Shown: one piece after another, positions 7,678 to 58,740 of the stretch
How the letters are laid out: the number at the start of each line of letters is the position of its first letter
Position numbering within the stretch: the stretch's first letter is position 1
Source: Bacillota bacterium
GTDB taxonomy: Bacteria > Bacillota > Clostridia > Christensenellales > SZUA-584
Assembly: GCA_023459495.1 (NCBI GenBank)
Contig: JAEWTL010000118.1
Coordinates: 45,949-109,948 of the forward strand
Direction: 5' to 3'
Length of the DNA stretch: 64,000 bases
Program-made: the position numbers and the translations under genes
The notes under the pieces: model-generated
What the model saw: only the letters and a program-made list of their open reading frames with translations
Database searches by the model: none
Told to the model about the DNA's origin: nothing

Positions 7678-9219
7678 TTAATCTTCACGGTCATAATATG
7701 CAGCGGTGCTCAGATTAAATTTAAGCTCACTGTCCTCTTCGATAAGCCCCAGCAGAATGCTGACGATATCCGCGTCAAACTGCGTGCCTGAACCCTTGAC
7801 AAGCTGTTCTCGGGTTTCCTCCAGTGAAAGATGCCGCCTGTAATGACGGTCGCTCATCATAGCGTCAAACGCATCCGCAACCGAAATGATGCGGGCAAGA
7901 AGTTCGATCTCGTCGCCTTTGATTCCATCCGGATACCCGCTGCCGTCCACATGCTCATGGTGGTGGCGCACGATGGGAACAATATCCTGAAACATTGAAA
8001 CCGCGGAAAGGATCATCGCGCCTTTGATGGGATGCTGCTTGACCTCGGTGTATTCTTCCTCGCTGAGCGAATAGCTCTTCAGGAGGATGTCGTCTGCCGT
8101 ACCGATCTTTCCGATGTCATGAAAGATTCCCGCAATACGCAATTTTTCAAGCTCTTCGGGAGCAAACCCAAGCTTTTCGCCGATGCGGGTGCTGTAATAC
8201 GCTACGCGATCCGAATGGCCTCGTGTATACTCATCCTTCGCATCCACCGCAAGCCGGAGCACCTCAATGGTATCCATATAGCGCACCTTTAGCTGCGCGT
8301 AAGTATTGTTCAGCTCTTCGTTCTTGGTATTGACAAGTGAGTGCAGAAACGCGTTGTTGATGGACGACGCGGCCTGTCGGGCATAAATCAGAAGTAAATC
8401 AATATCCTCATCCGCGCTGATATTGCTTACATAAATTGCTCCAATTGCAAGATTACTTTCGCCACTAAGCGGAATGATAACGCCACCCTCAGGATGCTTG
8501 ACGACCCTCATATCGGTACGCGCACGCCCGATCGCTTCTAAAAGCTCATGGTCAAGCAGATCGGGAAACTCGTCAATATCGACATCGTAAATGCCGATAC
8601 CCCGGAATATACTCTTGCGAATAAATTCACCATCGTTGTTGATTTCGTTGGCAGGAATGTCATCCACAAGTATGAACGCATCCGAACTGTGGACCATGGG
8701 CAGAAGTTGGACCAGTATCTCCTCCAGTATATTGCCGATGGGCTGAAGCTGGTAAATCTTTGGCACAGACCCCAATATGCTCTGTAGACCGTCACGGAAC
8801 TTCTGTATGGTGCGCATCTGCGAAATCGCTTTGATACCAGATTCGATTAACAGTTGCAATTGGTCAAGACGGTCACTCTTCTCACAGTATGCCTGTATAT
8901 CCAATGACTTAATGGTATTGATAGGCGGTGCAAGATCCTTATGCCCGGTCAAAAGCAGTATGTAAATTTCCTTGTTGGTCTCGCGAAGCCGCTCCACAAC
9001 CGTTTCGCCATGAATCGGTTGCATGTAATAATCGAGGATCAAAAGGTCATAATGGTTGCGTCTTAATTCCTCCAACCCTTCCAGCGGATTGGTGAAACCA
9101 ACACACGCATAACCATTACGGTTTAAAAGCGCGCTAATGCTGTCGAGAATCCCTTCTTCATCGTCGATAATCATAATGCTGTATTCGGTTGATAGCTCGA
9201 CGCGACGGTTTTTACGCAT
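7678..9219 (-). CDS. Response regulator with receiver, GAF-like linker and HD-GYP (c-di-GMP phosphodiesterase-type) domains
   Basis: Receiver motif IMIIDDEEG...LLILDYYM. HD-GYP motifs HSDRVA...FHDIGK...HHEHVDGSGYPDG. Start trimmed to ATG 9219 (GGAGG upstream), overlapping the kinase stop. Confidence 0.85.
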   Translation of the reverse strand: MRKNRRVELSTEYSIMIIDDEEGILDSISALLNRNGYACVGFTNPLEGLEELRRNHYDLLILDYYMQPIHGETVVERLRETNKEIYILLLTGHKDLAPPINTIKSLDIQAYCEKSDRLDQLQLLIESGIKAISQMRTIQKFRDGLQSILGSVPKIYQLQPIGNILEEILVQLLPMVHSSDAFILVDDIPANEINNDGEFIRKSIFRGIGIYDVDIDEFPDLLDHELLEAIGRARTDMRVVKHPEGGVIIPLSGESNLAIGAIYVSNISADEDIDLLLIYARQAASSINNAFLHSLVNTKNEELNNTYAQLKVRYMDTIEVLRLAVDAKDEYTRGHSDRVAYYSTRIGEKLGFAPEELEKLRIAGIFHDIGKIGTADDILLKSYSLSEEEYTEVKQHPIKGAMILSAVSMFQDIVPIVRHHHEHVDGSGYPDGIKGDEIELLARIISVADAFDAMMSDRHYRRHLSLEETREQLVKGSGTQFDADIVSILLGLIEEDSELKFNLSTAAYYDRED

Positions 9220-17000: not shown

Positions 17001-18426
17001 CGTCGGGGTCTTTATCAAAGCCGTGCTGTAGAAGCTCCGTCAGCGTTTCGCCCTGTGGATAGCTGCGTGCGGTGTCGTTGAAGCGATAGAGGATTCTTTT
17101 GCGCTCTTCCTCGCCCAATAAGTCCAGCATATAGAGCGGCTTGTCGGGATGGTTGATCATATCGCGGACGATATTGGCTAAATGGATATGGAAATATTCG
17201 ATCTCCTTATCGTGGAAAAGTGGCGTAAGATGGTCGTAGTCGAGGATGAAGCGCCCTTCGTCTTCACGGTCGTTCACATGGATGCTGAGCGCGCCGGCCT
17301 GGCTGCCCGAAAAATGCCAGCGGCCCTCATAATTAAAGTGCTCAGAATTCTTCTGGAACTTCCCGTATTGGTAAGAAAGCGTAACGTCATAGAGCTCATC
17401 AAGATTCTTGTATTTTTGATGCAACTCATGCATGAGTATATCGAAAGGATATTTCTGATGCTTCAGCGCGGAAAACCACTCGTTGGATACGATTTGGGAA
17501 AACTCCGTAAAGGAAAGCTCATCGGACAACGCAATGCGCACAGGGACCATACTCACGAACATGCCAAACATGGACTTTTCATCCAGCGTCGTACGGTTTG
17601 CGACTGGCGCGCCGATGATGATATCGTTTTTCCCGGTGACGCGGTTGATATAAATCGCCAAAGCGGACAGGAACATCGCATATACGGAAATACCCGCCTT
17701 CCGGCAGTATCCCCGCATTTTCCCGGAAAACGATTCTGGGAGAATAAACACCTTGCGCTGTGCGTCAACGCACATATCGGTGGTCTTCTTCGGCTTCAAT
17801 ATGGTGGGCTCGGAAAGCTGCTCGAACCGATTCGTCCAGTAATCCCGGTCATATGCATAGCGTTTAGACTGAAGATATTGCTGCTCTGCCGAGATATAAT
17901 CGATGTATGACGGATGAGAAGCAGCCGCCGGTTCATGGCCCTCCAGCAGCTGCCGGTAGTTATCCATTACTTGATTAGAAAACTCTACAATGGAGTTGGC
18001 ATCGGATATAATATGGTGGAACTTGGCGTACAGCCAGCATTCCCCTGAGCCAACATTTAATAAGGCAAAATAGTATAGTCGGCTGTCGATAAGCGGCATT
18101 GGGGTCTTGGTCTGCAAGCTGTCCCATTCGAACAGTTTTTCAAGGCTGAGGCCCGAAAAATCCAGCGTCTCCGCGTGGTATGGTTCATATGGAGCGACAT
18201 ACTGATAGGGTGCGCCTCTGTCAGTGCTGACACGCAGCCGAATTGATTCGTTCTCCTGTAAAAATATGTTCAAGGCCCGGTCCAGCAGCGCATAATCGAT
18301 ATGGCCTTTAATTTTAAGTGTTCCGGCATTGTTCCACATCCCGGTTCCGGGATGCAGTTTCTCGGTATACCATATGCGCTGCTGCGGATGGGTGAGCTCG
18401 TATTTAACCGGATGATCCATAACCAT
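11059..18426 (-). CDS. Bimodular nonribosomal peptide synthetase, C-A-T-C-A-T-R (terminal thioester reductase)
   Basis: Two C domains (HHIISDANS, HHIISDQRS). Two A domains (YTSGSTGQPKG, YTSGSTGIPKG, GELYIGG / GEAYISG). Two T domains (FFDVGGDSLS, FFALGGDSLG). C-terminal NAD(P)-binding reductase (ILITGATGYLGAHIL). Confidence 0.95.
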   Translation of the reverse strand: MVMDHPVKYELTHPQQRIWYTEKLHPGTGMWNNAGTLKIKGHIDYALLDRALNIFLQENESIRLRVSTDRGAPYQYVAPYEPYHAETLDFSGLSLEKLFEWDSLQTKTPMPLIDSRLYYFALLNVGSGECWLYAKFHHIISDANSIVEFSNQVMDNYRQLLEGHEPAAASHPSYIDYISAEQQYLQSKRYAYDRDYWTNRFEQLSEPTILKPKKTTDMCVDAQRKVFILPESFSGKMRGYCRKAGISVYAMFLSALAIYINRVTGKNDIIIGAPVANRTTLDEKSMFGMFVSMVPVRIALSDELSFTEFSQIVSNEWFSALKHQKYPFDILMHELHQKYKNLDELYDVTLSYQYGKFQKNSEHFNYEGRWHFSGSQAGALSIHVNDREDEGRFILDYDHLTPLFHDKEIEYFHIHLANIVRDMINHPDKPLYMLDLLGEEERKRILYRFNDTARSYPQGETLTELLQHGFDKDPDAPAVVCAGSTMTYRDLDERSDALAAHLYSLGVRRDSIVGLLVSRNIHYCIAVAAILKAGGAFQPIDTDIPAERIAYMLADSGAKIVIVSPEYEYKCPNDLGLHVVRTDLRIPSAGKVKSDCTPDSLAYVIYTSGSTGQPKGVQIEHRSIVHFVYSMQELWDLSPGGRLLCASSISFDISVMEYTLALTSGLTLVMAQEHEVTVPRNMVRLIQSANVNMMVVTPGRMELLLSDRQRPECLANFREIGLGGDVLTEKLLAQIQQCTQARITNMYGPTEITICCTLAEVSHAAVPNIGRPMPDVKAYILDPHHNPVPIGVPGELYIGGPGVARGYLNKPELNSTRFIDNPFEPGMKLYRTGDLTRWYPLGEIEFLGRIDKQVKIRGFRIELGEVENRLLSIPGVTSSAVTAYTNDAAGSRFLCAYLCGNPPKSVDIKAQLSRDLPAYMIPSIFITVDSLPYNNSGKVDRNKLPDPMAYLEDQKEDYQPPETATERLLAEIWGAELGLERISRNDSFFDVGGDSLSILNVMTQIEQQFHVAFRHEEVYNAPRLADMAAVIDAAEESSYSPILCAPVQHDYPVSSAQQRMWILAQADKGSVAYNIPLAFEITGDIDIYRLQSAFQRLVDYYETLRTSFVLRGADLRQQIHKKAKLVLEALECERKALRSTLKGLIRPFDLGTAPLMHAALIKTAPRRHVLFIDVHHIISDQRSQKILFSDLAALYKGEKLAQRPLEYKDYALWQQEFLHSDSMNIQRDYWKNVLSGELPLLNLHTDRPRPAEQRFDGVRHAFRIGKGAKEALQSFAAQHGGTLFMAVLAVYNVFLMKYTGQEDIIVGTPISGRTRDELRDMAGVFINTLPMRCFPRGDLSFADFFASVAKYCAAAFSNEDCPLERMIADIALPRDYSRNPLFDTMLIVAKKDMQVSLDGTNTAIYPFDPGFAKFDITLELYEDEEGVQCYFEYNKRLFKRSTIQRMAGHFCRLFTILPESPETCIAGVEMMSPQELWQVTQGFNQTDMPLDFNVTIQSLLESLATASRDKAALIIEGKRMTFWELNNRANQIAHRLREMGVQRNTIVALYVRRSFDMVAGLMGVLKAGGGYLPLDPTYPNDRVSFMLEDSDTKIILTDSPVNIPFNGDVLNLKDVPDNGDAENLDAIDRPEDAAYMIYTSGSTGIPKGGVLPRRALLNLYEGTKTTICYDSSQTSVSVTTVSFDIFVIDALLPLLFGCTVVLCTEEELRQPHMLAELIETEQVKFIQTTPTRMRIMMSDPSFRAAAKRNIQKIVLGGEEFPLSLLKLLKKYTDARIISGYGPTETTVYCTFKDLSHTSHITIGRPIINTRMYILDKYRRPVPMGVLGEAYISGACVATGYINRDELNREKFTPDPYWPGKTMYQSGDICAFMENGEMEIKGRVDHQVKIRGLRIELGEIEAAIREVKGVSEAVVKDWDEGVNKFLCAYYATKQGITPDMLRKYLSKKLPSYMVPSFFIGMSELPLTLNGKVNRKLLTRPDNEAQPQDNTPHEKLTKSEKIMARIWSRILKISAVQPGDSFFALGGDSLGVIKVQAALLQYGWTIRTQDFYEYQTLRGVCSRLNTAKTVRKTENEKVYIKEYRHITPPDMKNILITGATGYLGAHILAELIEKGESKICCLVRGKSHKECTARLREVLVFYFGSSAQKMMANVQIVQGDITQHHLGIAVHQYNELMEIDTVFHCAAVTDHIGYSTVFQQINVEGTRNIVEFVKDAKAVLLHVSTVSVSGTQYRDDPMRRGEFHENYFDIGQNYEDNEYVKSKFLSEEIVLKAIEQGLNARIFRVGVLTVSMNGRFQYHPEKNAFANRLLTICDIGCIPIEMLDTRIEMTPVDICANAILLLASVETKLPVFHVFNTNIMTLAEVIALIEMNGYRIEILSGREFMQRVILMSKKGSLSRLTGIIEDISGDQANENIIITAKKTHQILERLGFEWPVIDEGYIASFLNTIKEKGITGV

Positions 18427-40294: not shown

Positions 40295-42091
40295 TTATAC
40301 CGCCACATTTACAAAGCCTGCGCTGCTGCGCCGTGATGCCAGACTGCGTGCGCCCTCGAGGGCATCCGGTCCATCGTCGTGATCGCCCATAGGGAAAAAC
40401 CTCAACTGCTCAAGCAGCCGTTTATGTTCACGGTTAAATTTGATGTACTTGTTTTTGATGTCAGGCTGCAGCGTCTGGATGCGCAGCGTTTTATCCGATG
40501 TCTGGTTGACCTCCACGATAGGGAGGTAGACCCGTGCCGCCGCGCTGGCCTTGGCGAGCTGCTCCTTCAAGAACCACTGAAACTGGTTCGTTTCAGCGCC
40601 GAACTTGCGGTAACGCTTATTAAACTGCTTTTGAATCCACCGGGCCTTGCCGAGGACATCCTCGATGATCCTATCCGGATGACGCCGCTCAATATCAGCG
40701 TCGGCCACAAGCATGTATCCGGTCTTCTTATCCAGCGCCAGCGTAATGATCGCGGAAAAGTCGCTCTTCTTTGTTTTGCCGAGCGATGGATCCACAAAGC
40801 CAAAGAACTCCCATCGCGGATCGCGGAAGTCGATCTCGGCGGGGTTGTAGTAATCAAACCACTCTTCATTGAACAGACAGTCGTCCGGATTGATCGGTTC
40901 ATTCTGTAACTCACTGTTGAACGCGGATATGCCACCGTCGATGCGCTCGCGCATCAAGTCATAGTAGGAGTTCTTTTCTTCCCACAGCACCTGTGTTCCG
41001 GCCAACATCTCATCCCGGTGAGCTTCGAAGAATGCTCGCGCATCCGTTTCGTGGTTATCGTTCGACAGATCGATATAGATTTTCTCCCAGTCATCCCACA
41101 GCTTGGATCCGGAAAAGGATAGCACAGCTTTGTACTTTTTGCCCTTGAATCCCGGATTCTTCAGGATCTTTGCAAGGAGGCCGTCATAATGCAGCATGGT
41201 GCCGATGTACACAAAGTCTGTGTAACTATCACCGGCTTTCAGCACGGCCTTGGTAAACCAGTCGTTCAGCTTCTTGCGCTGTTCCGGTGTCTGAACGTTC
41301 GTATCGTTTTCCATGTCATCCAGGATGACCAGATCCGGACGCCAGTTCTTATGCTTCAGACCGCGGACCTTTTGCCCGGCGCCCATGGCCTGCACCTTAA
41401 TGTTAGTCTTGGTGACGATGACGTCCTCGCGCCAAATGCTACCGCGCAGTTCGCCAAAGTCCTCCCGGATGGCCTCATTCTCTTCTAACTCCTCGGCGTA
41501 GGCAGCGAGGAATCCCGCAGCCTGGCCGTAGGTGTCGGACATCAGAATGATGAAGTGCTTATATTCATATAACGTGGCATGCAGCCCGTCCTTGAACGTG
41601 AAGTTTGTAGACTTCGCGTGGCCACGGGGGGCCGCGGTCGCCCGGCGGCAGCCCGGTTTCTGGTTGATGGCTTTTTTATTGTCCAGTGGATTGAGGCCCT
41701 TCATGACACCTTCGGCAAAAAGGGCGTCCAGCTCACGGTGGAACGGCGGCGACGGACGGCTGAAGTAATGGGGCAGATACGCCCGGCCAAAGTAGTTGAG
41801 ATCAAACGCCGCCAGCTTCTTGCGCAGGCCGTCCGGCCCGGTAAGCTTTGCGCCAGCTCGCAGCTGCGCCAATAGCTCGGCACGGCGTGGATCACCATCC
41901 ACTGTTAAACACTCTTCTAAAAGTGTTTTAATAGCGTTAAAATCAACCTTTAAACCTTCGTCACTTTTACGGGCTGCCTCTGCAATCGCATCACTTAGCT
42001 TCTGTACACTACGCTTTTTAGCCTCATTCACTTGGCAGCCCCCCCTTTGTCTATGAAAATGAAGCCCTACGAGGCGATCTGAGCGCGGCAC
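40295..42091 (-). CDS. Terminase large subunit
   Basis: Walker-A-like RGHAKST, DLVILDDMEND (Walker B) and a C-terminal nuclease region. The true start may be the in-frame GTG at 42031, preceded by GGGGGG. Confidence 0.9.
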   Translation of the reverse strand: MPRSDRLVGLHFHRQRGGCQVNEAKKRSVQKLSDAIAEAARKSDEGLKVDFNAIKTLLEECLTVDGDPRRAELLAQLRAGAKLTGPDGLRKKLAAFDLNYFGRAYLPHYFSRPSPPFHRELDALFAEGVMKGLNPLDNKKAINQKPGCRRATAAPRGHAKSTNFTFKDGLHATLYEYKHFIILMSDTYGQAAGFLAAYAEELEENEAIREDFGELRGSIWREDVIVTKTNIKVQAMGAGQKVRGLKHKNWRPDLVILDDMENDTNVQTPEQRKKLNDWFTKAVLKAGDSYTDFVYIGTMLHYDGLLAKILKNPGFKGKKYKAVLSFSGSKLWDDWEKIYIDLSNDNHETDARAFFEAHRDEMLAGTQVLWEEKNSYYDLMRERIDGGISAFNSELQNEPINPDDCLFNEEWFDYYNPAEIDFRDPRWEFFGFVDPSLGKTKKSDFSAIITLALDKKTGYMLVADADIERRHPDRIIEDVLGKARWIQKQFNKRYRKFGAETNQFQWFLKEQLAKASAAARVYLPIVEVNQTSDKTLRIQTLQPDIKNKYIKFNREHKRLLEQLRFFPMGDHDDGPDALEGARSLASRRSSAGFVNVAV

Positions 42092-49649: not shown

Positions 49650-50039
49650 TCAATGCTTTTCGCGCATGCGGGGGATGGTCAGATCATCCCGGACGCGGGG
49701 CGTATAGTGGCGGTTCTGGTGGTATTCATCTACCTTGCGGACTTGCCCCAGCAGCGCGCTTAGTTCATTCAGCAACTTTGGATGCGACCTCATGAACGCG
49801 TCGATCGGCCCCGTGCACTCCTCGATATCCTTGTGATAGCGGCGAGAGATGAGTGTTTTCTGCAGCTCGCGGCTGACTCGGGTCCGCGACTTCGCGTCCT
49901 TTGCTGAAAGCTCAAGCTCATGCTGTAGGTCAGAAATCTCTTTTTCCCGGTCACTGACAACTCCGCCGTGGAAGCCGTAATCACTGACCGACCGCTTCAA
50001 AAAGTTGATCGCATTCTCAAGTTCCTGCGCGTAGTTCAT
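49650..50039 (-). CDS. Hypothetical phage protein
   Basis: 129-aa helical ORF with a GGAGG RBS. Confidence 0.55.
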   Translation of the reverse strand: MNYAQELENAINFLKRSVSDYGFHGGVVSDREKEISDLQHELELSAKDAKSRTRVSRELQKTLISRRYHKDIEECTGPIDAFMRSHPKLLNELSALLGQVRKVDEYHQNRHYTPRVRDDLTIPRMREKH

Positions 50040-50119: not shown

Positions 50120-50193
50120 GGGCCTTACGCTCCATGGCTATGCGGGAGTTTACCCCCCAAACTCCCGCTGCCATGGTCTCTCCCCACAGGCCC
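50120..50193 (-). ncRNA. Unclassified 74-nt extended stem-loop RNA element
   Basis: Nested stems GGGCC/GGCCC, CCAUGGC/GCCAUGG and GCGGGAGUUU/AAACUCCCGC. Asymmetric internal loops and a G6U apical loop. Intergenic, directly 3' of twister-like copy A. Confidence 0.4.
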
Positions 50194-50209
50194 TGCTATC
50201 GGGCTTCAT

Positions 50210-50290
50210 CCTCACTCTGCATTTTCACGGGCTGGTGACCGTCGGCTGTTAACCGGCTGCATTAAGGCAGGAGCGGTAGCGCTCCTTGGC
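50210..50290 (-). ncRNA. Twister-like self-cleaving ribozyme motif, copy A (with P3 insertion), plus 5' hairpin
   Basis: Minus strand: AGGAGCG-CUAC-CGCUCCU hairpin, then CCU-U|AA-UGCA-GCC-(GGUUAACAGCC)-G-ACGG-UCACCAGC-CCGU-G-AAAA-UGCA-GAGUGAGG. Predicted cleavage is between 50264 and 50263. Confidence 0.55.
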
Positions 50291-50301
50291 AGTTAATCAT
50301 T

Positions 50302-50826
50302 CTAAGCGGTGCCATCCTCGCTCGGCTTGGCCTCCGACGCAAAACCACTTAAAAACCAGTGCTTATCATCCTTGTTGATGTTATAAGGGATAGCCTCATC
50401 ATTCTTTTCATCGTAGCCGCCGTAATTTGTCCAGTTGTCACCATTCACAGACGTCTGATTCCACCCAATGGCTATGCAGTCTTCGTCCGCAAGTGCGCTT
50501 TCAATCACATTTGCTTGTTCTTTCAATGAAGTCTCACCCTCGAAAGCCCTGAAAGCATCAATAACCTGCTGAAAGTTTTCGCGCTTTATAAGGGCATAAT
50601 CATAGGTGGTTTGCAATGCGATCTGTTCGTACTCCGGCATCCTTTCAAATGCATCGTTCAGTTGATCGAATCCGGCCTGACCACTAAACATTGGAAAGGT
50701 TCCACCATAATATTTGTCGTATAGGAAGTTCCATATGGCGATTCCTCCACGCCACGAATTTTTAATCTCCGCAAGAAAGTATGCATCTCCTTTTTTGTCA
50801 AACCCAAACATCTCCGTATAGCTCAT
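50302..50826 (-). CDS. Hypothetical 174-aa protein bracketed by the two twister-like motifs
   Basis: GGAGGG RBS. Sequence MSYTEMFGFDKKGDAYFLAEIKNSWRGG.... I recognise no family. Confidence 0.65.
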   Translation of the reverse strand: MSYTEMFGFDKKGDAYFLAEIKNSWRGGIAIWNFLYDKYYGGTFPMFSGQAGFDQLNDAFERMPEYEQIALQTTYDYALIKRENFQQVIDAFRAFEGETSLKEQANVIESALADEDCIAIGWNQTSVNGDNWTNYGGYDEKNDEAIPYNINKDDKHWFLSGFASEAKPSEDGTA

Positions 50827-50849
50827 CCACGATTACCCTCCTTCAAATT

Positions 50850-50922
50850 CCTCACTCTGCATTACACGCGGGCTTGTGACCGCCGTCGGCTGCATTACGG
50901 GGTAGGAGCTGTCACGCTCCTA
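50850..50922 (-). ncRNA. Twister-like self-cleaving ribozyme motif, copy B, plus 5' hairpin
   Basis: Minus strand: GUAGGAGC-GUGACA-GCUCCUAC hairpin (includes the UAG stop), then CCCG-U|AA-UGCA-GCC-GAC-G-GCGG-UCACAAGC-CCGC-GUGUAA-UGCA-GAGUGAGG. It aligns element by element with the O. sativa twister core UAA-CACU-GCC-AAU-G-CCGG-UCCCAAGC-CCGG-AUAAA-AGUG-GAGGG. Confidence 0.65.
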
Positions 50923-51132
50923 CGCGATGTCTTTTGGAGGATCCTTCAGGCTCACAAGAGGCTTGTCTACGATCTTCAGGCATTTTGTTGCAAACCCTCC
51001 GGACTTTCCCTCAAGCAGAACGCATTCCGTTCCGCATACGTCATATGGTTCCGACCGTGTTTTCCACACCTTGTTCGGATACATCCGCGCTTCCGCACAG
51101 TTGACCATCTTCACTTCCGTTCCGACCTTCAT
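50920..51132 (-). CDS. Hypothetical small phage protein
   Basis: 70 aa with a GAGGAGG RBS. Confidence 0.55.
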   Translation of the reverse strand: MKVGTEVKMVNCAEARMYPNKVWKTRSEPYDVCGTECVLLEGKSGGFATKCLKIVDKPLVSLKDPPKDIA

Positions 51133-51340
51133 TTGGCACCTCCTCTAAAATCTCGTCCATCGGCTCGCTTCCGGTCGTCTCCAGCAGTATTGCCGGAGGT
51201 GCGGCCAGCAGCTGATATCCCTTCGTAATGTGGTGCAGCCGCTTTCCGATGTCGACGACCACCACTCCGACCTGCTCTTCCGGGGCAAATCGCTGCAGAT
51301 ATTCAATCAGCTCTCCGCATGTCATAATCCTTTCCGCCAT
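51041..51340 (-). CDS. Hypothetical small phage protein
   Basis: 99-aa ORF. Its last ~30 codons overlap the next gene, so the 3' end is uncertain. Confidence 0.4.
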   Translation of the reverse strand: MAERIMTCGELIEYLQRFAPEEQVGVVVVDIGKRLHHITKGYQLLAAPPAILLETTGSEPMDEILEEVPNEGRNGSEDGQLCGSADVSEQGVENTVGTI

Positions 51341-51552
51341 CCTTTCTTCGCCGCCATCTTATCCAGATCACGCTGCGCCTCATCGGCGGTCTCCCTGCAA
51401 GGGCATCCCGGCAAGCTCCGTGCGCCAGTCCTGTCCCTCAAGTATTTCCGTGCCCGGTATGCCGAGTTGTCGCCTAGCCCTGCGCTGCTGGGCGCGATGT
51501 GGTACATATTGCCCTTAGCGTCGTGGTACGTAGCTCCTGCAAACCACTCCAT
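51322..51552 (-). CDS. Hypothetical small phage protein
   Basis: 76-aa ORF in the operon frame pattern. Confidence 0.45.
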   Translation of the reverse strand: MEWFAGATYHDAKGNMYHIAPSSAGLGDNSAYRARKYLRDRTGARSLPGCPCRETADEAQRDLDKMAAKKGWRKGL

Positions 51553-51562
51553 AGTGCTCCTC

Positions 51563-51757
51563 CTAATTTGATTTCTTACCGGCCCATGCCAGTATCACTG
51601 CAATGACCGGGATCAGCGGGATGATCGCCTCGCCGCCGGTGGCGTCAAACCCGCGCTCGATATCGGCCAGTCGGAAGAGGAACGGTGTCAGGCCCCAGCA
51701 GATCCCGGCCAGCACCGCCCATCTCCGGAAGCGGCGGCTCGCCCACAGCCGCCTCAT
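51563..51757 (-). CDS. Small two-TM membrane protein
   Basis: Start trimmed to ATG 51757 (ATGA overlap with the upstream stop). MRRLWASRRFRRWAVLAGICWGLTPFLF...IIPLIPVIAVILAWAG. Confidence 0.45.
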   Translation of the reverse strand: MRRLWASRRFRRWAVLAGICWGLTPFLFRLADIERGFDATGGEAIIPLIPVIAVILAWAGKKSN

Positions 51758-51960
51758 GGTGTAGGGGACAGCGATTCCTGTATGCGCTGCGCGAGCCTGT
51801 CCACCTTGTCGTAGACCGTACCCCGGCCCAGGCGGATATCCTTGCTCTCGACATGGAGCCTTTCCGCGATGGCATACATCACATAATTGGCACCTTCGGA
51901 ATATCCGTGCCACGTGGCTTCGGTAGCCATCCGCTTAAGATCCTGCTCAGGTTGTCCCAT
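51754..51960 (-). CDS. Hypothetical small phage protein
   Basis: 68-aa ORF coupled to both neighbours. Confidence 0.45.
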   Translation of the reverse strand: MGQPEQDLKRMATEATWHGYSEGANYVMYAIAERLHVESKDIRLGRGTVYDKVDRLAQRIQESLSPTP

Positions 51961-52240
51961 CTGCGAAAGCCTCCTCCCGGATAAATACGTGGACTGTCTG
52001 CAAACCGTGATGTATGCCGCAGGTGCCTAAAAAGCGATATCCCGTCAGGTCCGGCGCTTCATATTCGGAGCCGAGAATGATCACGGTGTATGGCTCGGTT
52101 GCCGCCCGGTCCGAGTCGATGAGGGCGAACAACACGATGCCTTCGTGCTGCTCCATTACGCTTAGTACCTTGGCATTCTCCGGCAGCTTCACGGTCTGGG
52201 CTGCGGTAATCTGCATTGCGTACTTTTTGACCGTCATCAT
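51947..52240 (-). CDS. Hypothetical phage protein
   Basis: 97-aa ORF overlapping the MuB-like stop by 4 nt. Confidence 0.5.
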   Translation of the reverse strand: MMTVKKYAMQITAAQTVKLPENAKVLSVMEQHEGIVLFALIDSDRAATEPYTVIILGSEYEAPDLTGYRFLGTCGIHHGLQTVHVFIREEAFADGTT

Positions 52241-53178
52241 ACCGCCACCGCCAGCTTCATCTCCATATGCTTCGCCATGCCCACAAGGCCATCATAGCTG
52301 GTGTTCTCATTGTCCATCGCATTAACATAGAGGTTCATGGCACCGCGCAGAGCCTGGGCGCTGCGCGCGATCCCCAGCAGCAGATCGATTGCCTTTTCAT
52401 CTTCCAACGCCGGAAACAGCAGCTGGATGTCCTCGCGCTTGATCTGCATATAGGTGTAGACCTTGCGCTGCCGGGTGCGGTTATTGATCTGCGCGAATTC
52501 AGCGCGCTTCTTACCGCCTGCATTGTTTACCGTGTCGCTGTTTCCGATCAGCGCGATCCCCAGCGTTTGGCCGAGCTCGTCAAAGTAGTCCGACAGCGCG
52601 CGCAGCGCTTCCAGCGTCTTGATGGGCAGATGTTGGGCCTCGTCGACGATGATCACCATTCCATCCCGGAGCTTGGCGGCAAGCCCGAGCCACATCTCGT
52701 CGTTGGTACGTTCTGTGACATTGAGCTTCGCGCAAAGCACTTTCAAAAGAGCTTTAACGGTCGTTATGCAGGGGTTTAATGCCACGTATACGGCATCGTT
52801 CGGGTGGTCGCGGAAGAACTTCTTGGCGGCCATAGTCTTTCCAATCCCCGCATCACCGCATGCGATGGCCAGCCCGCCCTTCAGCTGGCAGTTTCGAATC
52901 ACCTCATAGACCTTGGTGGATATCGATGTACCCACGTACCCGCTGCTGGTAAGCTCGTACCCAGGCGATGCGGCGGCAGCTTCCTTGGTTTCGAAATAGC
53001 TGATCAGCTTTGCGAATTTCGCATCCTCATCCCCTTTGTATACGCCGCGGCGCAATGGGGACATGGTCGACGATGGTATTCCTACGATTGCGCAGGCCTT
53101 GTTTTGGCTCCCAACGGTCTTTTCCAGCTCCGCGAACTTCGTCAGGGCCCATTGCTTTTGCATGCTTGTTAACTCCAT
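52237..53178 (-). CDS. MuB-like AAA+ transposition ATPase
   Basis: N-terminal HTH-like region, Walker A GDAGIGKT and Walker B MVIIVDEAQ. Start trimmed to ATG 53178 (GGAGGAGG RBS). Confidence 0.8.
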   Translation of the reverse strand: MELTSMQKQWALTKFAELEKTVGSQNKACAIVGIPSSTMSPLRRGVYKGDEDAKFAKLISYFETKEAAAASPGYELTSSGYVGTSISTKVYEVIRNCQLKGGLAIACGDAGIGKTMAAKKFFRDHPNDAVYVALNPCITTVKALLKVLCAKLNVTERTNDEMWLGLAAKLRDGMVIIVDEAQHLPIKTLEALRALSDYFDELGQTLGIALIGNSDTVNNAGGKKRAEFAQINNRTRQRKVYTYMQIKREDIQLLFPALEDEKAIDLLLGIARSAQALRGAMNLYVNAMDNENTSYDGLVGMAKHMEMKLAVAV

Positions 53179-53194
53179 ATGCAACCTCCTCCAT

Positions 53195-55162
53195 TTATTC
53201 CGAGCGGCGCTTCGCCGCATTACGGTTCATTTTGCTCATGTCGATCAGCACGCCCGTGGTGCCTTGACCGACAGCCTCCTGCATGGGCATCTCTTCGCCG
53301 GATGTTACCGGTACGATGACCTTGGGCTGCTGGATCAGCATACCTTCCTTGCCAGCGTGCGCCCGGCGCACAGCGAGGTCCAGCATGTCGATGCTGCGGG
53401 CGGCGGGTACCGCACCCTTCAGCGCGGCAAGCTCCGACTTCACAGCCTTGTGCACGCGGCGTACGGTCTCCTGTGCCACCTTGACGGCTTCCGGATTGTC
53501 ATTAAACAGAACCATCGTGTCTCGCGCCATGGGTACCGTTCCGATGTAGCGGTCCGTCTCTGCGTCGTAGATACGCACGCTGTATAGGTTCGCGGGGTTG
53601 TAGCGGACGTATATCTCGGTACCCTGCAGCCGCCATGTATCTTCGTCCCAGTAATAGAGCTTTTCGTCGCAGATCGTGATATGCACACCGTTTTGACCAA
53701 CCTTCTGCTTACGAGTGCTGCGCATCAGCATCAGGTTGAGATCATCCGCAGAGGCTTTGCGCTGCGCCTGAATATACTCATTCCAGATGTCGATCCGGCG
53801 CTTACCATGGTCCTTTTCTACCGCGCCGCCATAGCTCCCGACGTTAAATTGGCCGTCGATGAAGTCCGAGATCATAACGCGCAGCTCGCCGTCCAGCGGT
53901 ACCAGTCCTTGCTTGAGCGTATATTTCAGGCTCTCCGGACGCTCCATCACGTTTCCGCCGCAGAATGTCTCAAACAGCCTCGATATCGTTCCTTTAAAGG
54001 TGTTAAAAGTCCGTTCAATAGGCTTCGCCTTGGCATTACGCACCAGGGCGTTGCGCAACTCGATCCCCAGCCGGGTAAATATCGGCGGCGGATCGGATAC
54101 AAGGTCTTGGCTCTTCCGGCTCCTGTGGCCGCGCCCGGCAAGGTCGTGGGTGAGAAACTCGGAGCCGTTATCGAAGTAGACAACTTTCGGGATTCCAAAG
54201 CGTAGGATTGCGTGCCGTAATGCCAGAACGGTGGACTGGCTGCATGGATTGTCTGTCAAGTTCCATCCGACCATGACTCCGCTTCGGGCGTCGATGAACG
54301 CTGTCAGGCTCATGCGGTGCTCCACCTTGCTGCCATCATCCCGATAGGAGAAGATATCCAGCGTATGGTTGTCCGCCACCCAGTAATCGTTTGGAAAAAG
54401 CTCATCGTACATCCGGACGATATATGGCGCGCACCGGTCGGAAAATGCCTTGTTGCCCTGTCGACCCAATGTGACCACGGCAGCGGCGATCTTCTCCGCC
54501 TGGCGGCGGAAGGTACGCTCACCCGGAAGGTCTGGCACCAGTTCCGGCGAGAACTCGGAGATCCAGTATTGTGTCAGCTGATAGCATTGGCTAATCGAAA
54601 GCTGCCGTTCGTCCAGATATGCGGTCAAAAACCAATCCCAGGCTTCTTTCGGAATCCCGCATTGGCCACGGTTCCATCCGCCCCGGTGATCGATGAGGCC
54701 TTCGATGTCACCGGCTTTATATGCCGCCCATTTGCGGTAGAGGATATCTTCGCTTAGGGCGATGTCCTTATAGTGCAGTTTCATCATGCTGACAAACAAC
54801 GGATCCGCGTCAGTCTTTCGGTCATATTTAGCCCGGCAAGCCTGCCATTGTTCCAACACGTTTGTCCAAAAAGAGATCTGTTCACGTTCCGCTGCGCTGT
54901 ATTCATCGAAGCTCCGCGCCGGGCGCGCTGCCTTCGGCGCTTTTGGCGCTACAGGCAGCAGCGACTCGCCCTTTAGGTTGGAGTAGTACTTGCGCTGCAG
55001 CTCCTGCGGAAGCGAACTGGCCGGGACCATATACTGCTTGCGGTTGTTAGCCGGGTTTGAATGTTCCTGAGCATAAATAGCCCCGGTTTTGATCTGCTCC
55101 CGGATATATCGCTCGCTACAGTTCTTCAATTCGGCTACTTGTTTTACTGTCAATAGATCCAT
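53195..55162 (-). CDS. MuA-like DDE transposase
   Basis: N-terminal HTH (LTVKQVAELKNCSERYIREQI), an rve-like catalytic core (WVADNHTLD...YFDNGSEF) and a large Mu-transposase-type C-terminal domain. Confidence 0.9.
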   Translation of the reverse strand: MDLLTVKQVAELKNCSERYIREQIKTGAIYAQEHSNPANNRKQYMVPASSLPQELQRKYYSNLKGESLLPVAPKAPKAARPARSFDEYSAAEREQISFWTNVLEQWQACRAKYDRKTDADPLFVSMMKLHYKDIALSEDILYRKWAAYKAGDIEGLIDHRGGWNRGQCGIPKEAWDWFLTAYLDERQLSISQCYQLTQYWISEFSPELVPDLPGERTFRRQAEKIAAAVVTLGRQGNKAFSDRCAPYIVRMYDELFPNDYWVADNHTLDIFSYRDDGSKVEHRMSLTAFIDARSGVMVGWNLTDNPCSQSTVLALRHAILRFGIPKVVYFDNGSEFLTHDLAGRGHRSRKSQDLVSDPPPIFTRLGIELRNALVRNAKAKPIERTFNTFKGTISRLFETFCGGNVMERPESLKYTLKQGLVPLDGELRVMISDFIDGQFNVGSYGGAVEKDHGKRRIDIWNEYIQAQRKASADDLNLMLMRSTRKQKVGQNGVHITICDEKLYYWDEDTWRLQGTEIYVRYNPANLYSVRIYDAETDRYIGTVPMARDTMVLFNDNPEAVKVAQETVRRVHKAVKSELAALKGAVPAARSIDMLDLAVRRAHAGKEGMLIQQPKVIVPVTSGEEMPMQEAVGQGTTGVLIDMSKMNRNAAKRRSE

Positions 55163-55168
55163 GTCATA

Positions 55169-55229
55169 CCTGCCTCATCAGTACCGGGAGGTTATCCCCG
55201 GCAGACCGCCCGCAGGCGGTTTCGGCTTA
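55169..55229 (-). ncRNA. Type-II hammerhead ribozyme motif, copy 1
   Basis: Minus strand: UAA-GCC-GAAA-CCGCC-UGCG-GGCGG-UC|UGCCGGGG-AUAACC-UCCCGGUA-CUGAUGA-GGCAGG. CUGAUGA, GAAA, the A15.1-U16.1 pair and the GUC cleavage triplet are all present. Predicted cleavage is between 55204 and 55203. In cis, stem II is only GGC/GCC, possibly plus UAU/AUA. Confidence 0.7.
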
Positions 55230-55412
55230 TTCTTCGATTCTCCCATCCACCGTATAGCGGTGCGGGTCAGATACAGTCAAATGCTCGCCGCATACTAAAC
55301 AATCAAAGTCCCGTGTCTTAAATCCTTGATTGTGAGCTGGGAATATGACCTCTACGCGATTTTTAGCTCCACATTTCGGACATGTTGTTTCGATCTTGCC
55401 TGTCATATCCAT
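55227..55412 (-). CDS. Small zinc-ribbon protein (61 aa) bracketed by the two hammerhead motifs
   Basis: CPKCG...CLVCG, with an AGGAGGG RBS. Confidence 0.6.
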   Translation of the reverse strand: MDMTGKIETTCPKCGAKNRVEVIFPAHNQGFKTRDFDCLVCGEHLTVSDPHRYTVDGRIEE

Positions 55413-55436
55413 CGAAAACCCTCCTAAACATAATTT

Positions 55437-55507
55437 GAAACCTGCCTCATCAGTGCCGGTAGGTCGTCCCCGGCAGACCGCCCGCGGGCGGTTTCGGCTA
55501 CTGTTTC
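55437..55507 (-). ncRNA. Type-II hammerhead ribozyme motif, copy 2
   Basis: Minus strand: GAAAC-AGUA-GCC-GAAA-CCGCC-CGCG-GGCGG-UC|UGCCGG-GGACGACCUA-CCGGCA-CUGAUGA-GGC-AG-GUUUC. Stem II is GGC/GCC plus GUUUC/GAAAC. Predicted cleavage is between 55476 and 55475. Confidence 0.8.
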
Positions 55508-55677
55508 CGATATCTTCTGGCGAATCTTTCAGCCTTTAGATCGTCTATGATATCCGCGGCTTCCCGGCATGTAAGTTCATTGGCCTCTTTTTCTGTATAG
55601 TCCGCCAGATCCACTTGAAGCTGATCGATCAGTTCCTGCATATAGCTCTTCTGGCCGTCGGTGATCATAAATGACAT
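55498..55677 (-). CDS. Hypothetical small acidic protein (59 aa)
   Basis: Start trimmed to ATG 55677 (AAAGGAAG RBS). The longer ORF-track N-terminus lacks an RBS. Confidence 0.45.
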   Translation of the reverse strand: MSFMITDGQKSYMQELIDQLQVDLADYTEKEANELTCREAADIIDDLKAERFARRYRKQ

Positions 55678-55727
55678 TGCAATCTTCCTTTCTACTCTCA
55701 ACTGCGGTTCCGGCTTATCTGTTCTTG

Positions 55728-55736
55728 TGTTATACT
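55728..55736 (+). promoter_or_regulatory. Extended -10 promoter for plus-strand ORF 55759
   Basis: TGtTATACT with a weak -35 (TTCCGG) 17 nt upstream. Confidence 0.35.
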
Positions 55737-55758
55737 CATAAAAAAAGGGGTATAGCAC

Positions 55759-56967: not shown

Positions 56968-57171
56968 TCACCTCCTTTTAAATAGATCATCAATTGTTGT
57001 ATCCAGTAGGCATGCTAGCTCTGGAAGCAAATCAGTCCGGGGCATTGATCTACCCGTCTCCCACATAGCAACAGTTGACTGAGCGACGCGCAGCTTTTCT
57101 CCGAGCTGCACTTGCGTAAGCCTCTTTTTTTTACGATATTCTTTTATCTGATTCATTTTATTAAGACCCAT
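56968..57171 (-). CDS. Cro/Ner-like XRE-family HTH regulator
   Basis: KKKRLTQVQLGEKLRVAQSTVAMWETG. First gene of the early operon, divergent from the repressor gene. Confidence 0.8.
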   Translation of the reverse strand: MGLNKMNQIKEYRKKKRLTQVQLGEKLRVAQSTVAMWETGRSMPRTDLLPELACLLDTTIDDLFKRR

Positions 57172-57203: not shown

Positions 57204-57300
57204 TTGATATTATATATCTACCACATTGATAATTCAATATATATATCAATATTTTATCAAAATTATATTAATCTTATTGATATTATCATTTATATTGATA
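57204..57300. promoter_or_regulatory. Operator/divergent promoter region with six TTGATA/TATCAA repeats
   Basis: TTGATA at 57204, 57226, 57277 and 57295. TATCAA at 57244 and 57255. The candidate repressor promoter is TTGATA (57277-82) - 16 nt - TGaTATATT (57296-57304). Confidence 0.55.
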
Positions 57301-57336
57301 TATTATGAGGAAAAGGGCGATCGGTAGGCGGTAATT

Positions 57337-57930
57337 ATGAGTAAATTAAAAGAACTTCGTAAACAAAAAAGGCTCACCCAAAGCGAAGTGGCTAGTTATC
57401 TGGGTATATCTCAAAACACATACTCTTACTGGGAGAATGATAAGGTGAAAATAGACAATCAGTCTTTAATAAGATTGTCTAAATTATATAATACATCCGT
57501 TGACTATATTCTTGGTAATAATTCAAAAACTCCCAAAGGTATACAAATACCCGTCTTGGGTAGAATCCAAGCCGGTATACCCATAGAGGCTATACAAGAA
57601 ATACTTGATTATGAAGAGATACCACTCGATTTAGCAAAACAAGGAGATTTTTTAGCGCTACAAATTAAAGGGAATAGTATGGAGCCGAAATTTTCTGAAG
57701 GTGATACGGTTATAGTAAGAAAGCAAGATGATATCGAGAACGGTGAGGTAGGCGTAGTTATAATCAACGGATCTGACGCTACAATAAAGCGTGTTTTTAA
57801 ACATAATGATGGCCTGTCATTGGTGGCTACTAATACTGCCTATTCACCAATGTTTTTTACAAAAGATGAAATTTTATCTCTACCTGTTTCTATCATTGGT
57901 AAAGTCGTAGAATTAAGAGCAAAATTTTAA
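57337..57930 (+). CDS. Phage repressor, XRE HTH plus S24 (LexA/cI-type) autopeptidase domain
   Basis: HTH RLTQSEVASYLGISQNTYSYWEN. S24 catalytic pattern GNSMEP ... ATIKRV. Confidence 0.9.
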   Translation: MSKLKELRKQKRLTQSEVASYLGISQNTYSYWENDKVKIDNQSLIRLSKLYNTSVDYILGNNSKTPKGIQIPVLGRIQAGIPIEAIQEILDYEEIPLDLAKQGDFLALQIKGNSMEPKFSEGDTVIVRKQDDIENGEVGVVIINGSDATIKRVFKHNDGLSLVATNTAYSPMFFTKDEILSLPVSIIGKVVELRAKF

Positions 57931-57976: not shown

Positions 57977-58534
57977 TCATTTTTCTTGGTTAATATATCT
58001 ATAAAGCGTTGTCTGTGATACTCCAGACAGGCGGCAAACCTCGCTGACTGAGTGATCCCCTGAACGGTAGAGCTTCAGTGCGGTATCAATTGCGCGCGGA
58101 TTCGTGCGTGGACGCCCGCCGATCCGGCCACGGGCACGGGCGCTCTTTAGCCCCTCGTTTACTCGCTGCACAATGAGATCTCGCTCAAACTCCGCAAAGG
58201 ACTGAAATACCTTCATCATAAGGCGTCCCTGTGGCGTGCCGGTATCGAAGTTTTCCTTGATGGATACCAGTATCACGCCTCGAGAGATAAACCATTCTAC
58301 CAAATCCAAAAGGTCCCGCATGGAACGCCCTAATCGCGACCATGACTCCACAACGACCGTATCGCCTTCCCGCACTTTATCCTTAAGCCGGTTCAGCTCC
58401 GGACGGATCGGCTTCGTGCCCGTATACTTTTCCGTCAGTATCTCATCACAAGGATAGGCGGACAGCTCATCAATTTGCCGGTCGTTGTTCTGGCCCGTGG
58501 TGCTTACACGCGCATAACCATATACCTTATTCAT
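57977..58534 (-). CDS. Small serine recombinase (resolvase/invertase family)
   Basis: YGYARVSTTGQNNDRQ catalytic N-terminus and a C-terminal HTH (SVSEVCRLSGVSQTTLYRYI). Start trimmed to ATG 58534 (GGAGGTG RBS). Confidence 0.9.
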   Translation of the reverse strand: MNKVYGYARVSTTGQNNDRQIDELSAYPCDEILTEKYTGTKPIRPELNRLKDKVREGDTVVVESWSRLGRSMRDLLDLVEWFISRGVILVSIKENFDTGTPQGRLMMKVFQSFAEFERDLIVQRVNEGLKSARARGRIGGRPRTNPRAIDTALKLYRSGDHSVSEVCRLSGVSQTTLYRYINQEK

Positions 58535-58740
58535 ATCGTTCACCTCCAAAACCACTTTATCATTAACATAACTTATTGGCAATAATGATTTTGGTGATAT
58601 TTTTGGTAACGATTTTAAGCCATTTTCGGGGCCTTTTTTGAGCTCTAAAAATCTTACCTTTAACTTTAGTTTTTGGTAATCACTTTTGGCTAAAACATTA
58701 GCATCAAAATTGCCTTTAGAATACCGATTAAAACAGCGTC

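Follow-up and report, generated by a model that had tools for sequence, protein, structure and literature searches.

The stretch of DNA analyzed here (the 'window', 64,000 nucleotides of contig JAEWTL010000118.1 from a Bacillota bacterium of the lineage SZUA-584) contains a Mu-like transposable prophage, extending from approximately 20.5 to 57.9 kb, in which MuA, MuB, Gam, GemA and Mor were identified, and in the early operon of that prophage lie four putative self-cleaving ribozymes of two classes (type II hammerhead and type-P1 twister), encoded on the same strand, within 5.3 kb of one another, beside Mu-like phage genes. Read along the minus strand, the operon comprises small open reading frames (ORFs), a hammerhead, an ORF of 61 amino acids (aa), a second hammerhead, the genes for MuA and MuB, and several further small ORFs, followed by a twister, a 174-aa ORF, a second twister, a 129-aa ORF, a DNA methylase gene and, later, the genes for Gam, GemA and Mor. 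The initial annotation of this region had proposed that each ribozyme class is used as a pair that brackets a single small ORF within one polycistronic early operon, and that the RNAs so released might be circularized.

Promoter-like sites are concentrated at 57.2-57.3 kb, in a divergent region that is presumed to be the start of the polycistronic early transcript, and no terminator-like site was found on the minus strand between 57.2 and 49.5 kb; the same interval contained no convincing internal promoter. The existence of a cluster of promoters upstream, followed by an interval free of terminator-like sites down to 49.5 kb, renders a single early transcript plausible, as had been suggested. 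The possibility that the bracketed ORFs represent independent units, provided with a promoter or terminator of their own, was discarded, since no convincing internal promoter or terminator was found for them.

A scan of the whole window with Rfam, at curated gathering thresholds, returned exactly two matches, both to Hammerhead_II (RF02276, gathering score 37) and both on the minus strand. These hammerheads, which lie on either side of the 61-aa ORF in the manner that had been described, possess an intact core (CUGAUGA, GAAA and GUC, arranged as ...CGAAAC...GUC^U...CUGAUGAG...), closed stems I and III, an open stem II of 3 base pairs (bp; GCC/GGC), and a 4-bp pseudoknot formed between loop I and the 3' tail (ACCU/AGGU). 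The two copies are near-identical, and the differences between them keep the pairing (for example, a G-U pair in place of a G-C pair in stem I). In an alignment of 13 sequences, consisting of the two window copies and 11 from related phages, the three stems and the pseudoknot were 92% paired, and 11 pairs were found to have changed on both sides, including a C-G to U-A change in stem II and three pairs of the pseudoknot; the observed covariation was reached in none of 500 column shuffles, and shifted registers dropped to 30-43% pairing. The alignments place the predicted cleavage sites at C55476^U55475 in the upstream hammerhead and at C55204^U55203 in the hammerhead of the transposase leader, and these independently derived positions match the junction (55475 joined to 55204) that had been named for an excised RNA. 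The upstream hammerhead is missing from the closest relatives of the prophage, designated L050 and L051. Its tail (GGCAGGUUUC, 55436-55460, minus strand) is complementary to the GAAACC-GCC stretch at the 5' side of the hammerheads (55204-55227, minus strand), and the two form a long-range helix in the minimum-free-energy (MFE) fold of the 272-nucleotide (nt) RNA that would be excised; this complementarity is not present in the tails of related hammerheads, and the helix is probably a product of chance.

The twisters were identified by Rfam scans at permissive E-values, as well as with a model built for this analysis (R1), and both score below the gathering score of twister-P1 (RF03160; 67.2). 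The pair that had been recognized around the 174-aa ORF was nonetheless borne out: the E-values are 7e-6 and 4e-10, and pseudoknot T1 is present in a compensated form. Both twisters display stems P2 and P4 and a U^A cleavage site, with their termini in P1, and follow the pattern UAA-UGCA...UGCA-GAGUG, with P4 as either ACG/CGU or GCG/CGC. Stem P1 is only 2-3 bp long; P1 has been found to be dispensable for twister catalysis (PMC5113685). When the pseudoknots are assigned as in a published structure (T1, L4 CCC with L1 GGG; T2, L2 GC with L4 GC; PMC5408937), T1 in the window reads CAC/GUG, and the nucleotides of T2 (GC...GC) are present. Cleavage is predicted at U50897^A50896 in the upstream twister and at U50264^A50263 in the downstream one, and these ends, again derived independently, correspond to the second junction of the initial annotation (50896 joined to 50264). 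The upstream twister has a syntenic counterpart in five relatives (L050-L054), and is followed 22 nt downstream by a Shine-Dalgarno sequence (GGAGGG) and the AUG of the 174-aa ORF; the downstream twister is orthologous to the downstream twister of L050, where the site is intact.

The low scores of the twisters result from a specific deviation from the Rfam consensus, in that the window sequences read GGUCAC.AG / GAGUG where the consensus is GGUCCCAAG / GAGGG, which amounts to a double compensatory change, C-G to A-U, in the middle pair of T1. Among 109 twisters of related viral contigs, T1 is CAC/GUG in 88, CCC/GGG in four and CUC/GAG in two, with other compensated forms (UAC/GUA, UGC/GCA, CGC/GCG and CCA/UGG) also represented. 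No twister was reported at the Rfam gathering threshold in 14 related loci that were scanned, and model R1 finds approximately 30 in those same loci; the twister-P1 threshold thus excludes the whole CAC/GUG subgroup, which is a large and genuine branch of the twister class. In viral contigs from IMG/VR (L057-L136), twisters whose T1 reads CAC/GUG occur very frequently, with at least 120 matching stretches. At one position of L4, a member of the non-canonical A-A pair of T1, the downstream twister of the window carries C (GGUCAC-C-AGCCC), where all 98 scorable relatives carry A and where the upstream twister matches them; because that position is otherwise invariant, the activity of the downstream twister is less certain than that of the other three motifs. 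On our numbering of the Osa-1-4 twister the position would be A28, and would then not be one of the four at which every substitution abolishes activity. Those four were defined by deep mutagenesis of a rice twister (PMC5113685).

Table 1. Ribozymes, genes and regulatory features of the prophage early region (window coordinates; strand '.' where none is assigned).
Feature	Position	Strand	Remarks
LexA-like repressor gene	57337-57930	+	Peptidase_S24 and HTH_3 domains
Divergent early promoter/operator region	57204-57363	.	Cluster of sigma-70-like sites, between the repressor and Cro/Ner-like genes
Cro/Ner-like HTH gene	56968-57171	-	HTH_3 domain
86-aa ORF	55498-55758	-	Stop codon overlapped by the 5' edge of the upstream hammerhead
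Upstream type II hammerhead	55499-55436	-	RF02276, 43.6 bits, E 1e-5; model R2, 76.1 bits
61-aa ORF	55227-55412	-	CxxC...CxxC, zinc-ribbon-like; GGAGG Shine-Dalgarno upstream; orphan cargo gene
Transposase-leader type II hammerhead	55227-55164	-	Rfam, 51.8 bits, E 9e-8; conserved ribozyme site
MuA-like DDE transposase	53195-55162	-	Pfam Mu-transpos_C, rve, HTH_Tnp_Mu_2; phrog_310, E 5e-98
MuB-like AAA+ transposition protein	52237-53220	-	Pfam AAA_22; phrog_296, E 2e-48
P0 hairpin, GUAGGAGC-GUGACA-GCUCCUAC	50902-50923	-	Adjoins the upstream twister on its 5' side; stop codon of a 70-aa ORF overlapped
Upstream type-P1 twister, without P3	50901-50849	-	RF03160, 42.1 bits, E 7e-6, below gathering score; model R1, 67.7 bits
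174-aa ORF	50302-50826	-	phrog_19610, E 1e-28; no Pfam match; interchangeable cargo of the twister slot
P0 hairpin, AGGAGCG-CUAC-CGCUCCU	50269-50286	-	Directly 5' of the downstream twister
Downstream type-P1 twister, short P3	50268-50209	-	RF03160, 56.9 bits, E 4e-10, below gathering score; model R1, 83.5 bits
129-aa ORF (phrog_2717)	49650-50039	-	Next cistron past the twister slot; kept in L050 and L052

Comparison with related phages indicates that two of these ribozyme positions are conserved features of the operon. Wherever there was enough upstream sequence, in 17 of 17 related phages, the transposase gene is immediately preceded by a self-cleaving ribozyme (16 hammerheads and one pistol). 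All eight loci reached through MuA have a ribozyme in this position. Seven viral contigs with a MuA 40-85% identical to that of the window each contain a type II hammerhead, the end of which lies 1-30 nt ahead of the MuA start; six of these were detected at the Rfam threshold and one (L055) by a model of our own. Nine further MuA loci with enough upstream sequence, reached through the twister pattern, contributed eight hammerheads and, in L099, a pistol. Automatic scoring recognized six of these nine, and an ORF of 660-678 aa immediately adjoins the hammerhead of L082 and of L111. The pistol ribozyme of L099 (9895-9962, minus strand, 64.7 bits) fills the gap 5' of MuA where its relatives have a hammerhead, which suggests that what is conserved at this position is cleavage, rather than the class of the motif. 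A weak match to a group I intron, scoring 29.7 bits and below its gathering score, lies beside the pistol (L099, 10258-10686, plus strand). The A-B transposition genes are succeeded by a twister in the window and in L050-L055, and the same holds for seven further contigs, which display the arrangement hammerhead-[A, B, 0-3 small ORFs]-twister with a spacing of 3.3-3.8 kb. The conserved bracket of these phages is therefore hammerhead-[A, B, few small genes]-twister.

The smaller brackets are, by comparison, variable. Nucleotide homology between the window and L050, L051 or L052 runs up to the first twister, is lost over the cargo between the twisters, and resumes at the second, and where L050 and L051 have a homologue of the 86-aa ORF abutting a single hammerhead, the window has the upstream hammerhead and the 61-aa ORF cleanly inserted as a unit. 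Across all loci, the endpoints of BLAST homology fall within 30 nt of a ribozyme in 7.0% of cases (5.4% after de-duplication), versus 2.5% for random positions, a modest enrichment of 2-3-fold. Short brackets are common in the phage group as a whole, in that 15 of 40 consecutive ribozyme pairs are spaced by 250-750 nt, around one or two small ORFs. The cargo of the twister slot itself differs from phage to phage (phrog_19610 in the window, phrog_3205 in L050, phrog_5671 in L051 and L052), and L053 and L054 have a single twister and no cargo, with gam directly after it; phrog_3205 appears again in L054 at a different place, upstream of MuA, between a ribozyme of the twister-sister class and a hammerhead. 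The bracketed small genes are interchangeable cargo, and bracketing is tied to the operon position and not to the genes that are bracketed.

That conclusion is in agreement with what was learned of the two cargo genes of the window. The 61-aa ORF yields only sub-threshold matches to zinc-ribbon families of Pfam; no homologue except itself was found among 5.8 billion proteins, and it is absent from about 175 related loci. The 174-aa protein is acidic (pI 4.3) and belongs to a family of 340 homologues with invariant WNQTSV and PYN motifs; its AF2 model, which is a confident one (pLDDT 87.8), has no fold match in the PDB with an E-value below 0.5, and matches only uncharacterized phage proteins in BFVD. 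For the cargo proteins, searches of Pfam, PHROGs, NCBIfam and PADLOC led to nothing beyond phage families that have no assigned function. In L047, a phage that is not Mu-like, a homologue of 73% identity resides in an early block together with genes for Lar-type restriction alleviation and a DNA methylase, and the 174-aa family is a candidate anti-defense gene. Forty-seven other loci with homologues of the 174-aa protein, drawn from genomes, viral contigs and metagenomes and distinct from copies of the window phage, contained neither twisters (model R1) nor hammerheads (model R2). Close homologues sit in compact non-Mu operons, beside methylase and restriction-alleviation genes, with gaps of 10-66 nt that leave no room for a ribozyme, and in L015 the gene order 174-129 is kept without ribozymes. 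Bracketing by twisters as a trait of the 174-aa gene family is ruled out by the 47 ribozyme-free loci.

The ribozymes are also positioned closely with respect to the genes on either side of them. Of 28 hammerheads, 89% have a start codon preceded by a Shine-Dalgarno sequence between -12 and +40 nt of the ribozyme 3' end, as do 64% of 107 twisters, compared with 21% of random same-strand positions; hammerheads are followed by such a start at a median distance of 15 nt, and twisters at 26 nt. On the other side, the stop codon of the upstream gene touches the ribozyme or its P0 hairpin, or overlaps with it. A hairpin that ends within 3 nt 5' of the twister is present for 78% of 111 related twisters versus 35% of controls, and these hairpins are GC-rich and very diverse in sequence. 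The hairpin was considered as a new feature, and that was ruled out: it equals P0, which is known as an optional stem of the twister (PMC5408937). On the reading of this analysis, P0 would become the 3'-terminal hairpin, or cap, of the upstream product after cleavage. The post-cleavage leader of the transposase message is likewise predicted to fold with a flush 8-bp hairpin at its 5' end.

At the transposase gene itself, the hammerhead and the translation start are so close as to share nucleotides. The AUG of MuA, at 55162 in the window, follows the CUGAUGA element by 12 nt; the distance is 12-13 nt in the window, L050 and L053, and approximately 15 nt, as read from the sequences, in L051 and L052. 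Because of this short spacing, the only sequence resembling a Shine-Dalgarno for MuA in these phages is the one formed by the stem II strand of the hammerhead and its pseudoknot tail (GAGGCAGGU or GGCAGGUGA), the first of these being the 3' tail in the window and the sole such sequence available to the AUG there. More distant relatives have a separate Shine-Dalgarno for MuA. The overlap suggests that the hammerhead is linked to translation of the transposase.

The explanation that appears on balance probable, and that is adopted here with some reserve, is that the four motifs serve as constitutive punctuation and insulation of the transcript, without regard to ribozyme class, and that the small brackets arose through the insertion or exchange of accessory genes beside conserved sites. 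The sequences show the motifs, their positions, their conservation and the variability of the cargo; the scheme presupposes, by inference, that the predicted hammerheads and twisters self-cleave at specific sites, that all four motifs would do so in vivo, and that the benefit would consist of insulation or stabilization. Each ribozyme would occupy the gap between one stop codon and the next start codon, where cleavage during transcription would part adjacent cistrons. A type II hammerhead would leave the upstream RNA with the stem III hairpin and a terminal C>p, and the downstream RNA with a stem I hairpin flush with its 5'-OH; a type-P1 twister would leave its P0 hairpin and NNNNU>p on the upstream RNA, and its compact body on the downstream one. 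For either class, the Shine-Dalgarno and start codon of the next gene come about 1-25 nt further on. Each gene would then be expressed from a defined, hairpin-capped mRNA of its own, the stability and translation of which would be uncoupled from those of its neighbors. There would be two fixed sites in such a scheme, immediately 5' of transposase gene A and past the A-B/early block, and in this clade gene A would also use the pseudoknot tail of the hammerhead as its ribosome-binding site. The two pairs of the window would exist because an accessory gene beside a conserved site had gained a second ribozyme copy: the upstream hammerhead and orphan 61-aa ORF would be one such insertion relative to the nearest relatives, and the twister slot, the cargo of which varies by phage, would be another site of this kind.

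Discrete excised or trimmed mRNAs are likely products of such an operon. The initial annotation had proposed that each bracketed ORF is released as a discrete RNA with a 5'-OH and a 2',3'-cyclic phosphate, and this would follow from motifs that are real, on the same strand and in one operon. It had also listed, as an alternative to circles, the uncoupling of bracketed genes from the remainder of the operon, and it is that alternative that the comparative evidence favors. In a tentative extension of the scheme, which seems possible but rather doubtful, the ribozymes would double as plug-and-play joints, providing both insulation of accessory genes at the level of RNA and homology for the exchange of cassettes at the level of DNA.

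Several considerations weigh against punctuation and insulation as the function of these motifs. Of the twisters examined, 36% are without a nearby start codon, including the downstream twister of the window, where the gap is 169 nt. That same twister may, given its substitution in L4, be slow, inactive or dead, and if it is dead the 174-aa mRNA would be trimmed at its 5' end only. In Firmicutes a 5'-OH can mark RNA for decay by RNase J1, so that cleavage could destabilize the downstream cistrons, and the protective effect of the terminal hairpins is a supposition on which the scheme depends. Finally, the early region of a more distant, cultured phage, Bacillus phage BalMu-1 (37% MuA identity), gave no Rfam match at E-values up to 0.1; that phage runs the same operon without a ribozyme, and the function is thus not essential for Mu-like phages generally.

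The precedent of RNase J1 leads to a different reading of the same cleavage events, in which it is the exposed 5'-OH that matters: the A and B cistrons, and those that follow, would be sent to 5'-exonucleolytic decay of the RNase J type, with the effect of keeping the transposase low or of setting a gradient of expression along the operon. Such programmed destabilization has a Firmicute precedent in glmS and RNase J1 (Collins et al. 2007, as cited in PMC6765202), and would account for a strictly conserved site directly 5' of the gene for a protein that is usually scarce, as well as for the overlap between the transposase Shine-Dalgarno and the pseudoknot tail. It is considered unlikely, in that the downstream products would begin with a flush stem I hairpin or a folded twister, structures of the kind that block 5'-end-dependent nucleases, the upstream products would be capped by hairpins as well, as if designed for persistence, and A and B are required for lytic replication of a transposable phage. 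Circularization had formed the headline of the initial annotation. In the form considered here, both ribozymes of a pair would cut and the excised ORF RNA (272 or 633 nt) would be sealed, by RtcB or by reversal of the ribozyme reaction, into a stable, translatable circle. The cleavage chemistry does yield ends that are compatible with RtcB, sealing by that ligase requires no match between the ribozymes, the near-identity of the hammerheads would in principle allow a single nicked hammerhead to be reassembled from the 5' and 3' ends of the released RNA, and some twister pairs of related phages are 94-98% identical. After cleavage, however, the two halves would be joined by only a 3-bp stem II or a 2-3-bp P1, and in partition-function folding the first 15 nt are expected to form 0.0 pairs with the last 30 nt in the 272-nt RNA, and 0.06 in the 633-nt RNA. 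The identity of adjacent twisters ranges from 0.57 to 0.98, with a median of 0.80, as against 0.71 for unrelated twisters (0.77 for the window pair), and in L052 the 5' strand of the downstream P1 (GCGG) is not complementary to the 3' strand of the upstream P1. Matched ends are evidently not required, since unmatched arrangements occupy the same sites: a bracket of mixed class in L054, lone ribozymes in L050, L051, L053 and L054, and the pistol in L099. Spliced or circular products of such arrangements were sought by Perreault et al. in 2011 and none were detected (PMC3088659). No RtcB was found among the 20 window ORFs scanned, including all that are of a size for RtcB. Examination of P1 complementarity, pair identity and folding thus produced neither a hybrid ribozyme nor pairing of the ends in support of circles, and the headline was not upheld; circularization is judged very unlikely, and that the 272-nt (61-aa) and 633-nt (174-aa) RNAs, joined by RtcB or by ribozyme re-ligation, are long-lived and translated circular phage mRNAs is more improbable still.

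Two further readings assign less importance to the cleavage itself. The ribozyme sequences, each of approximately 55-65 bp and kept across phages that are otherwise mosaic, might act primarily in DNA, as homology patches for the exchange, gain and loss of cassettes, with RNA cleavage being secondary. The break in homology at the twisters between the window and L050, L051 or L052, with unrelated cargo between them, speaks for such a role, as do the clean presence or absence of the upstream hammerhead with the 61-aa ORF, the 2-3-fold enrichment of homology endpoints near ribozymes, and the existence of pairs that form near-identical direct repeats. The stems and pseudoknots covary around invariant catalytic cores, though, which implies selection on the RNA fold and not on mere DNA identity, different ribozyme classes are found at the same site, and the enrichment of endpoints is modest and in part trivial, as expected of a conserved island beside variable genes. 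A primary role in DNA is accordingly regarded as improbable; it can coexist with a role in processing and, because breakpoints are enriched by only 2-3-fold, the idea of recombination joints is retained as a rival or an addition and not as the principal explanation. It might also be supposed that some of the copies, especially the upstream hammerhead and the variant downstream twister, are functionless by-products of duplication in the course of decay. The upstream hammerhead is indeed specific to its lineage, the downstream twister is substituted at an invariant position and the 61-aa ORF lacks homologues, but both hammerheads have a perfect core, all of their stems and the pseudoknot, the differences between them preserve pairing, and the site of the downstream twister is orthologous and intact in L050; decay is, of all the readings considered, the one given the least credence.

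The arrangement in the window is a new instance of a published pattern. Perreault et al. 2011 (PLoS Comput Biol, PMC3088659) described prophage genes flanked by hammerheads, proposed processing to mRNAs of one gene each and already considered circular or spliced products, so that the novelty implied by the initial annotation was overrated; the same role in RNA processing was put forward there and in PMC6765202. Like those prophage hammerheads, the hammerheads of the window are of type II, contain a pseudoknot between loop I and the tail, and flank single genes or short blocks in a prophage operon, and in both cases the flanked genes are not constant. Unlike them, the window combines a pair of hammerheads with a pair of twisters in one operon. 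Going beyond that earlier description, the hammerhead site 5' of the transposase is here positionally conserved and replaceable by a pistol, and in this clade the ribosome-binding site of the transposase lies inside the hammerhead tail.

Earlier surveys of ribozyme clusters in Mu-like phages are compared here through the descriptions given in PMC10085705, PMC6765202 and PMC5408937. According to the first two of these accounts, twisters and hammerheads share gene neighborhoods, their strongest associations are with genes of Mu-like phages, and the exact ribozyme motif seems unimportant, for a biological reason that is given as unknown. In the form in which they are described, those clusters resemble the window in placing several classes within a few kb of Mu-like genes, with a RAGATH-type motif near (the match in the window being weak), and differ from it in that the window twisters belong to the CAC/GUG T1 subgroup below the Rfam gathering score. 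The statement that bracketing is unexplained was correct (PMC6765202, PMC10085705), and a literature search returned no newer paper resolving the function of these ribozymes.

Among better understood systems, the closest in design is an engineered one. RiboJ, which Lou and colleagues reportedly introduced in 2012, is a synthetic insulator part based on a satellite-RNA hammerhead. It and the window arrangement have in common a ribozyme immediately upstream of a ribosome-binding site, the removal of upstream RNA and a structured 5' end left behind, and the short distance between ribozyme and ribosome-binding site or start codon is likewise found in these phages, at the frequencies of 89% and 64% given above (21% for random positions). 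The arrangement of the window differs in being natural, in lying between cistrons and in shaping the 3' end of the upstream message as well, and its insulating effect would be a presumed one. In Tornado, retrozymes and viroid-like RNAs, the two ends are kept in a stable stem or rod and are joined by RtcB-type ligases. As in those systems (PMC4918200), two flanking ribozymes in the window would release an RNA with a 5'-OH and a 2',3'-cyclic phosphate; here, however, the residual pairing is 2-3 bp and relatives carry unmatched or single ribozymes, so that neither stably paired termini nor a matched pair as a conserved requirement is seen in the window or its relatives. The glmS ribozyme of Firmicutes also cleaves itself within an mRNA leader, generating a 5'-OH that alters the fate of the mRNA, but it is ligand-dependent and destabilizing, whereas the motifs of the window are without a known ligand and their products would be capped by hairpins.

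Why bacteria and phages carry thousands of hammerheads, twisters, pistols and related ribozymes, with the strongest association beside the genes of Mu-like phages, is a question that has stood open since 2011-2015. The locus described here, together with its relatives, sharpens that question, in suggesting that the selected property is cleavage at fixed positions of an operon, whatever the ribozyme class, most clearly 5' of the transposase, and that the permutations used (the type II hammerhead, and the type-P1 twister with P0) would leave hairpins on both products. If the insulating role is true, these motifs would be natural versions of a widely used part of synthetic biology, and would have given phages a route to portable accessory genes; the RNA circles, if real, would represent the first natural instance in a bacterium of protein-coding circular RNAs produced by small ribozymes. 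Of more practical consequence, a large subgroup of phage twisters falls below the Rfam gathering score and is missed by routine annotation.

Additional structured RNAs were noted in the prophage and its relatives. A RAGATH-28-like RNA in the window (42282-42197, minus strand), just upstream of the large terminase gene (40295-42091), scores 39.5 bits against a gathering score of 45.3, and is probably real, since an unambiguous RAGATH-28 of 72.8 bits is found in the contig of a related phage (L133, 10983-11062). In other phage contigs, namely L081 (1895-9902), L080 and L112, twisters of the same kind are interspersed with tRNA genes and a tmRNA gene, which suggests that arrays of phage tRNAs are punctuated by twisters as well. 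A structured region of approximately 80 nt with a long hairpin (CCAUGGCAGCGGGAG...CUCCCGC..GCCAUGG) separates the downstream twister of the window from the 129-aa ORF (50120-50205, minus strand), and the 175-nt stretch that holds this hairpin has an MFE z-score of -3.4 and is without a U-tract. The region has no Rfam match and is present only in the window phage and in L050, where it is kept with an apparently compensatory change of A-U to G-C.

Beyond the early operon, a gene for a serine recombinase (resolvase; 57977-58582, minus strand) is situated immediately outside the repressor end of the Mu-like prophage. The host flank encodes a two-module non-ribosomal peptide synthetase of 2455 aa with a terminal reductase domain (11059-18426, minus strand), and beside it lies a two-component pair (7678-11056, minus strand), of which the histidine kinase is of the 7TM type and the response regulator carries an HD domain (Pfam HD_5, HD).

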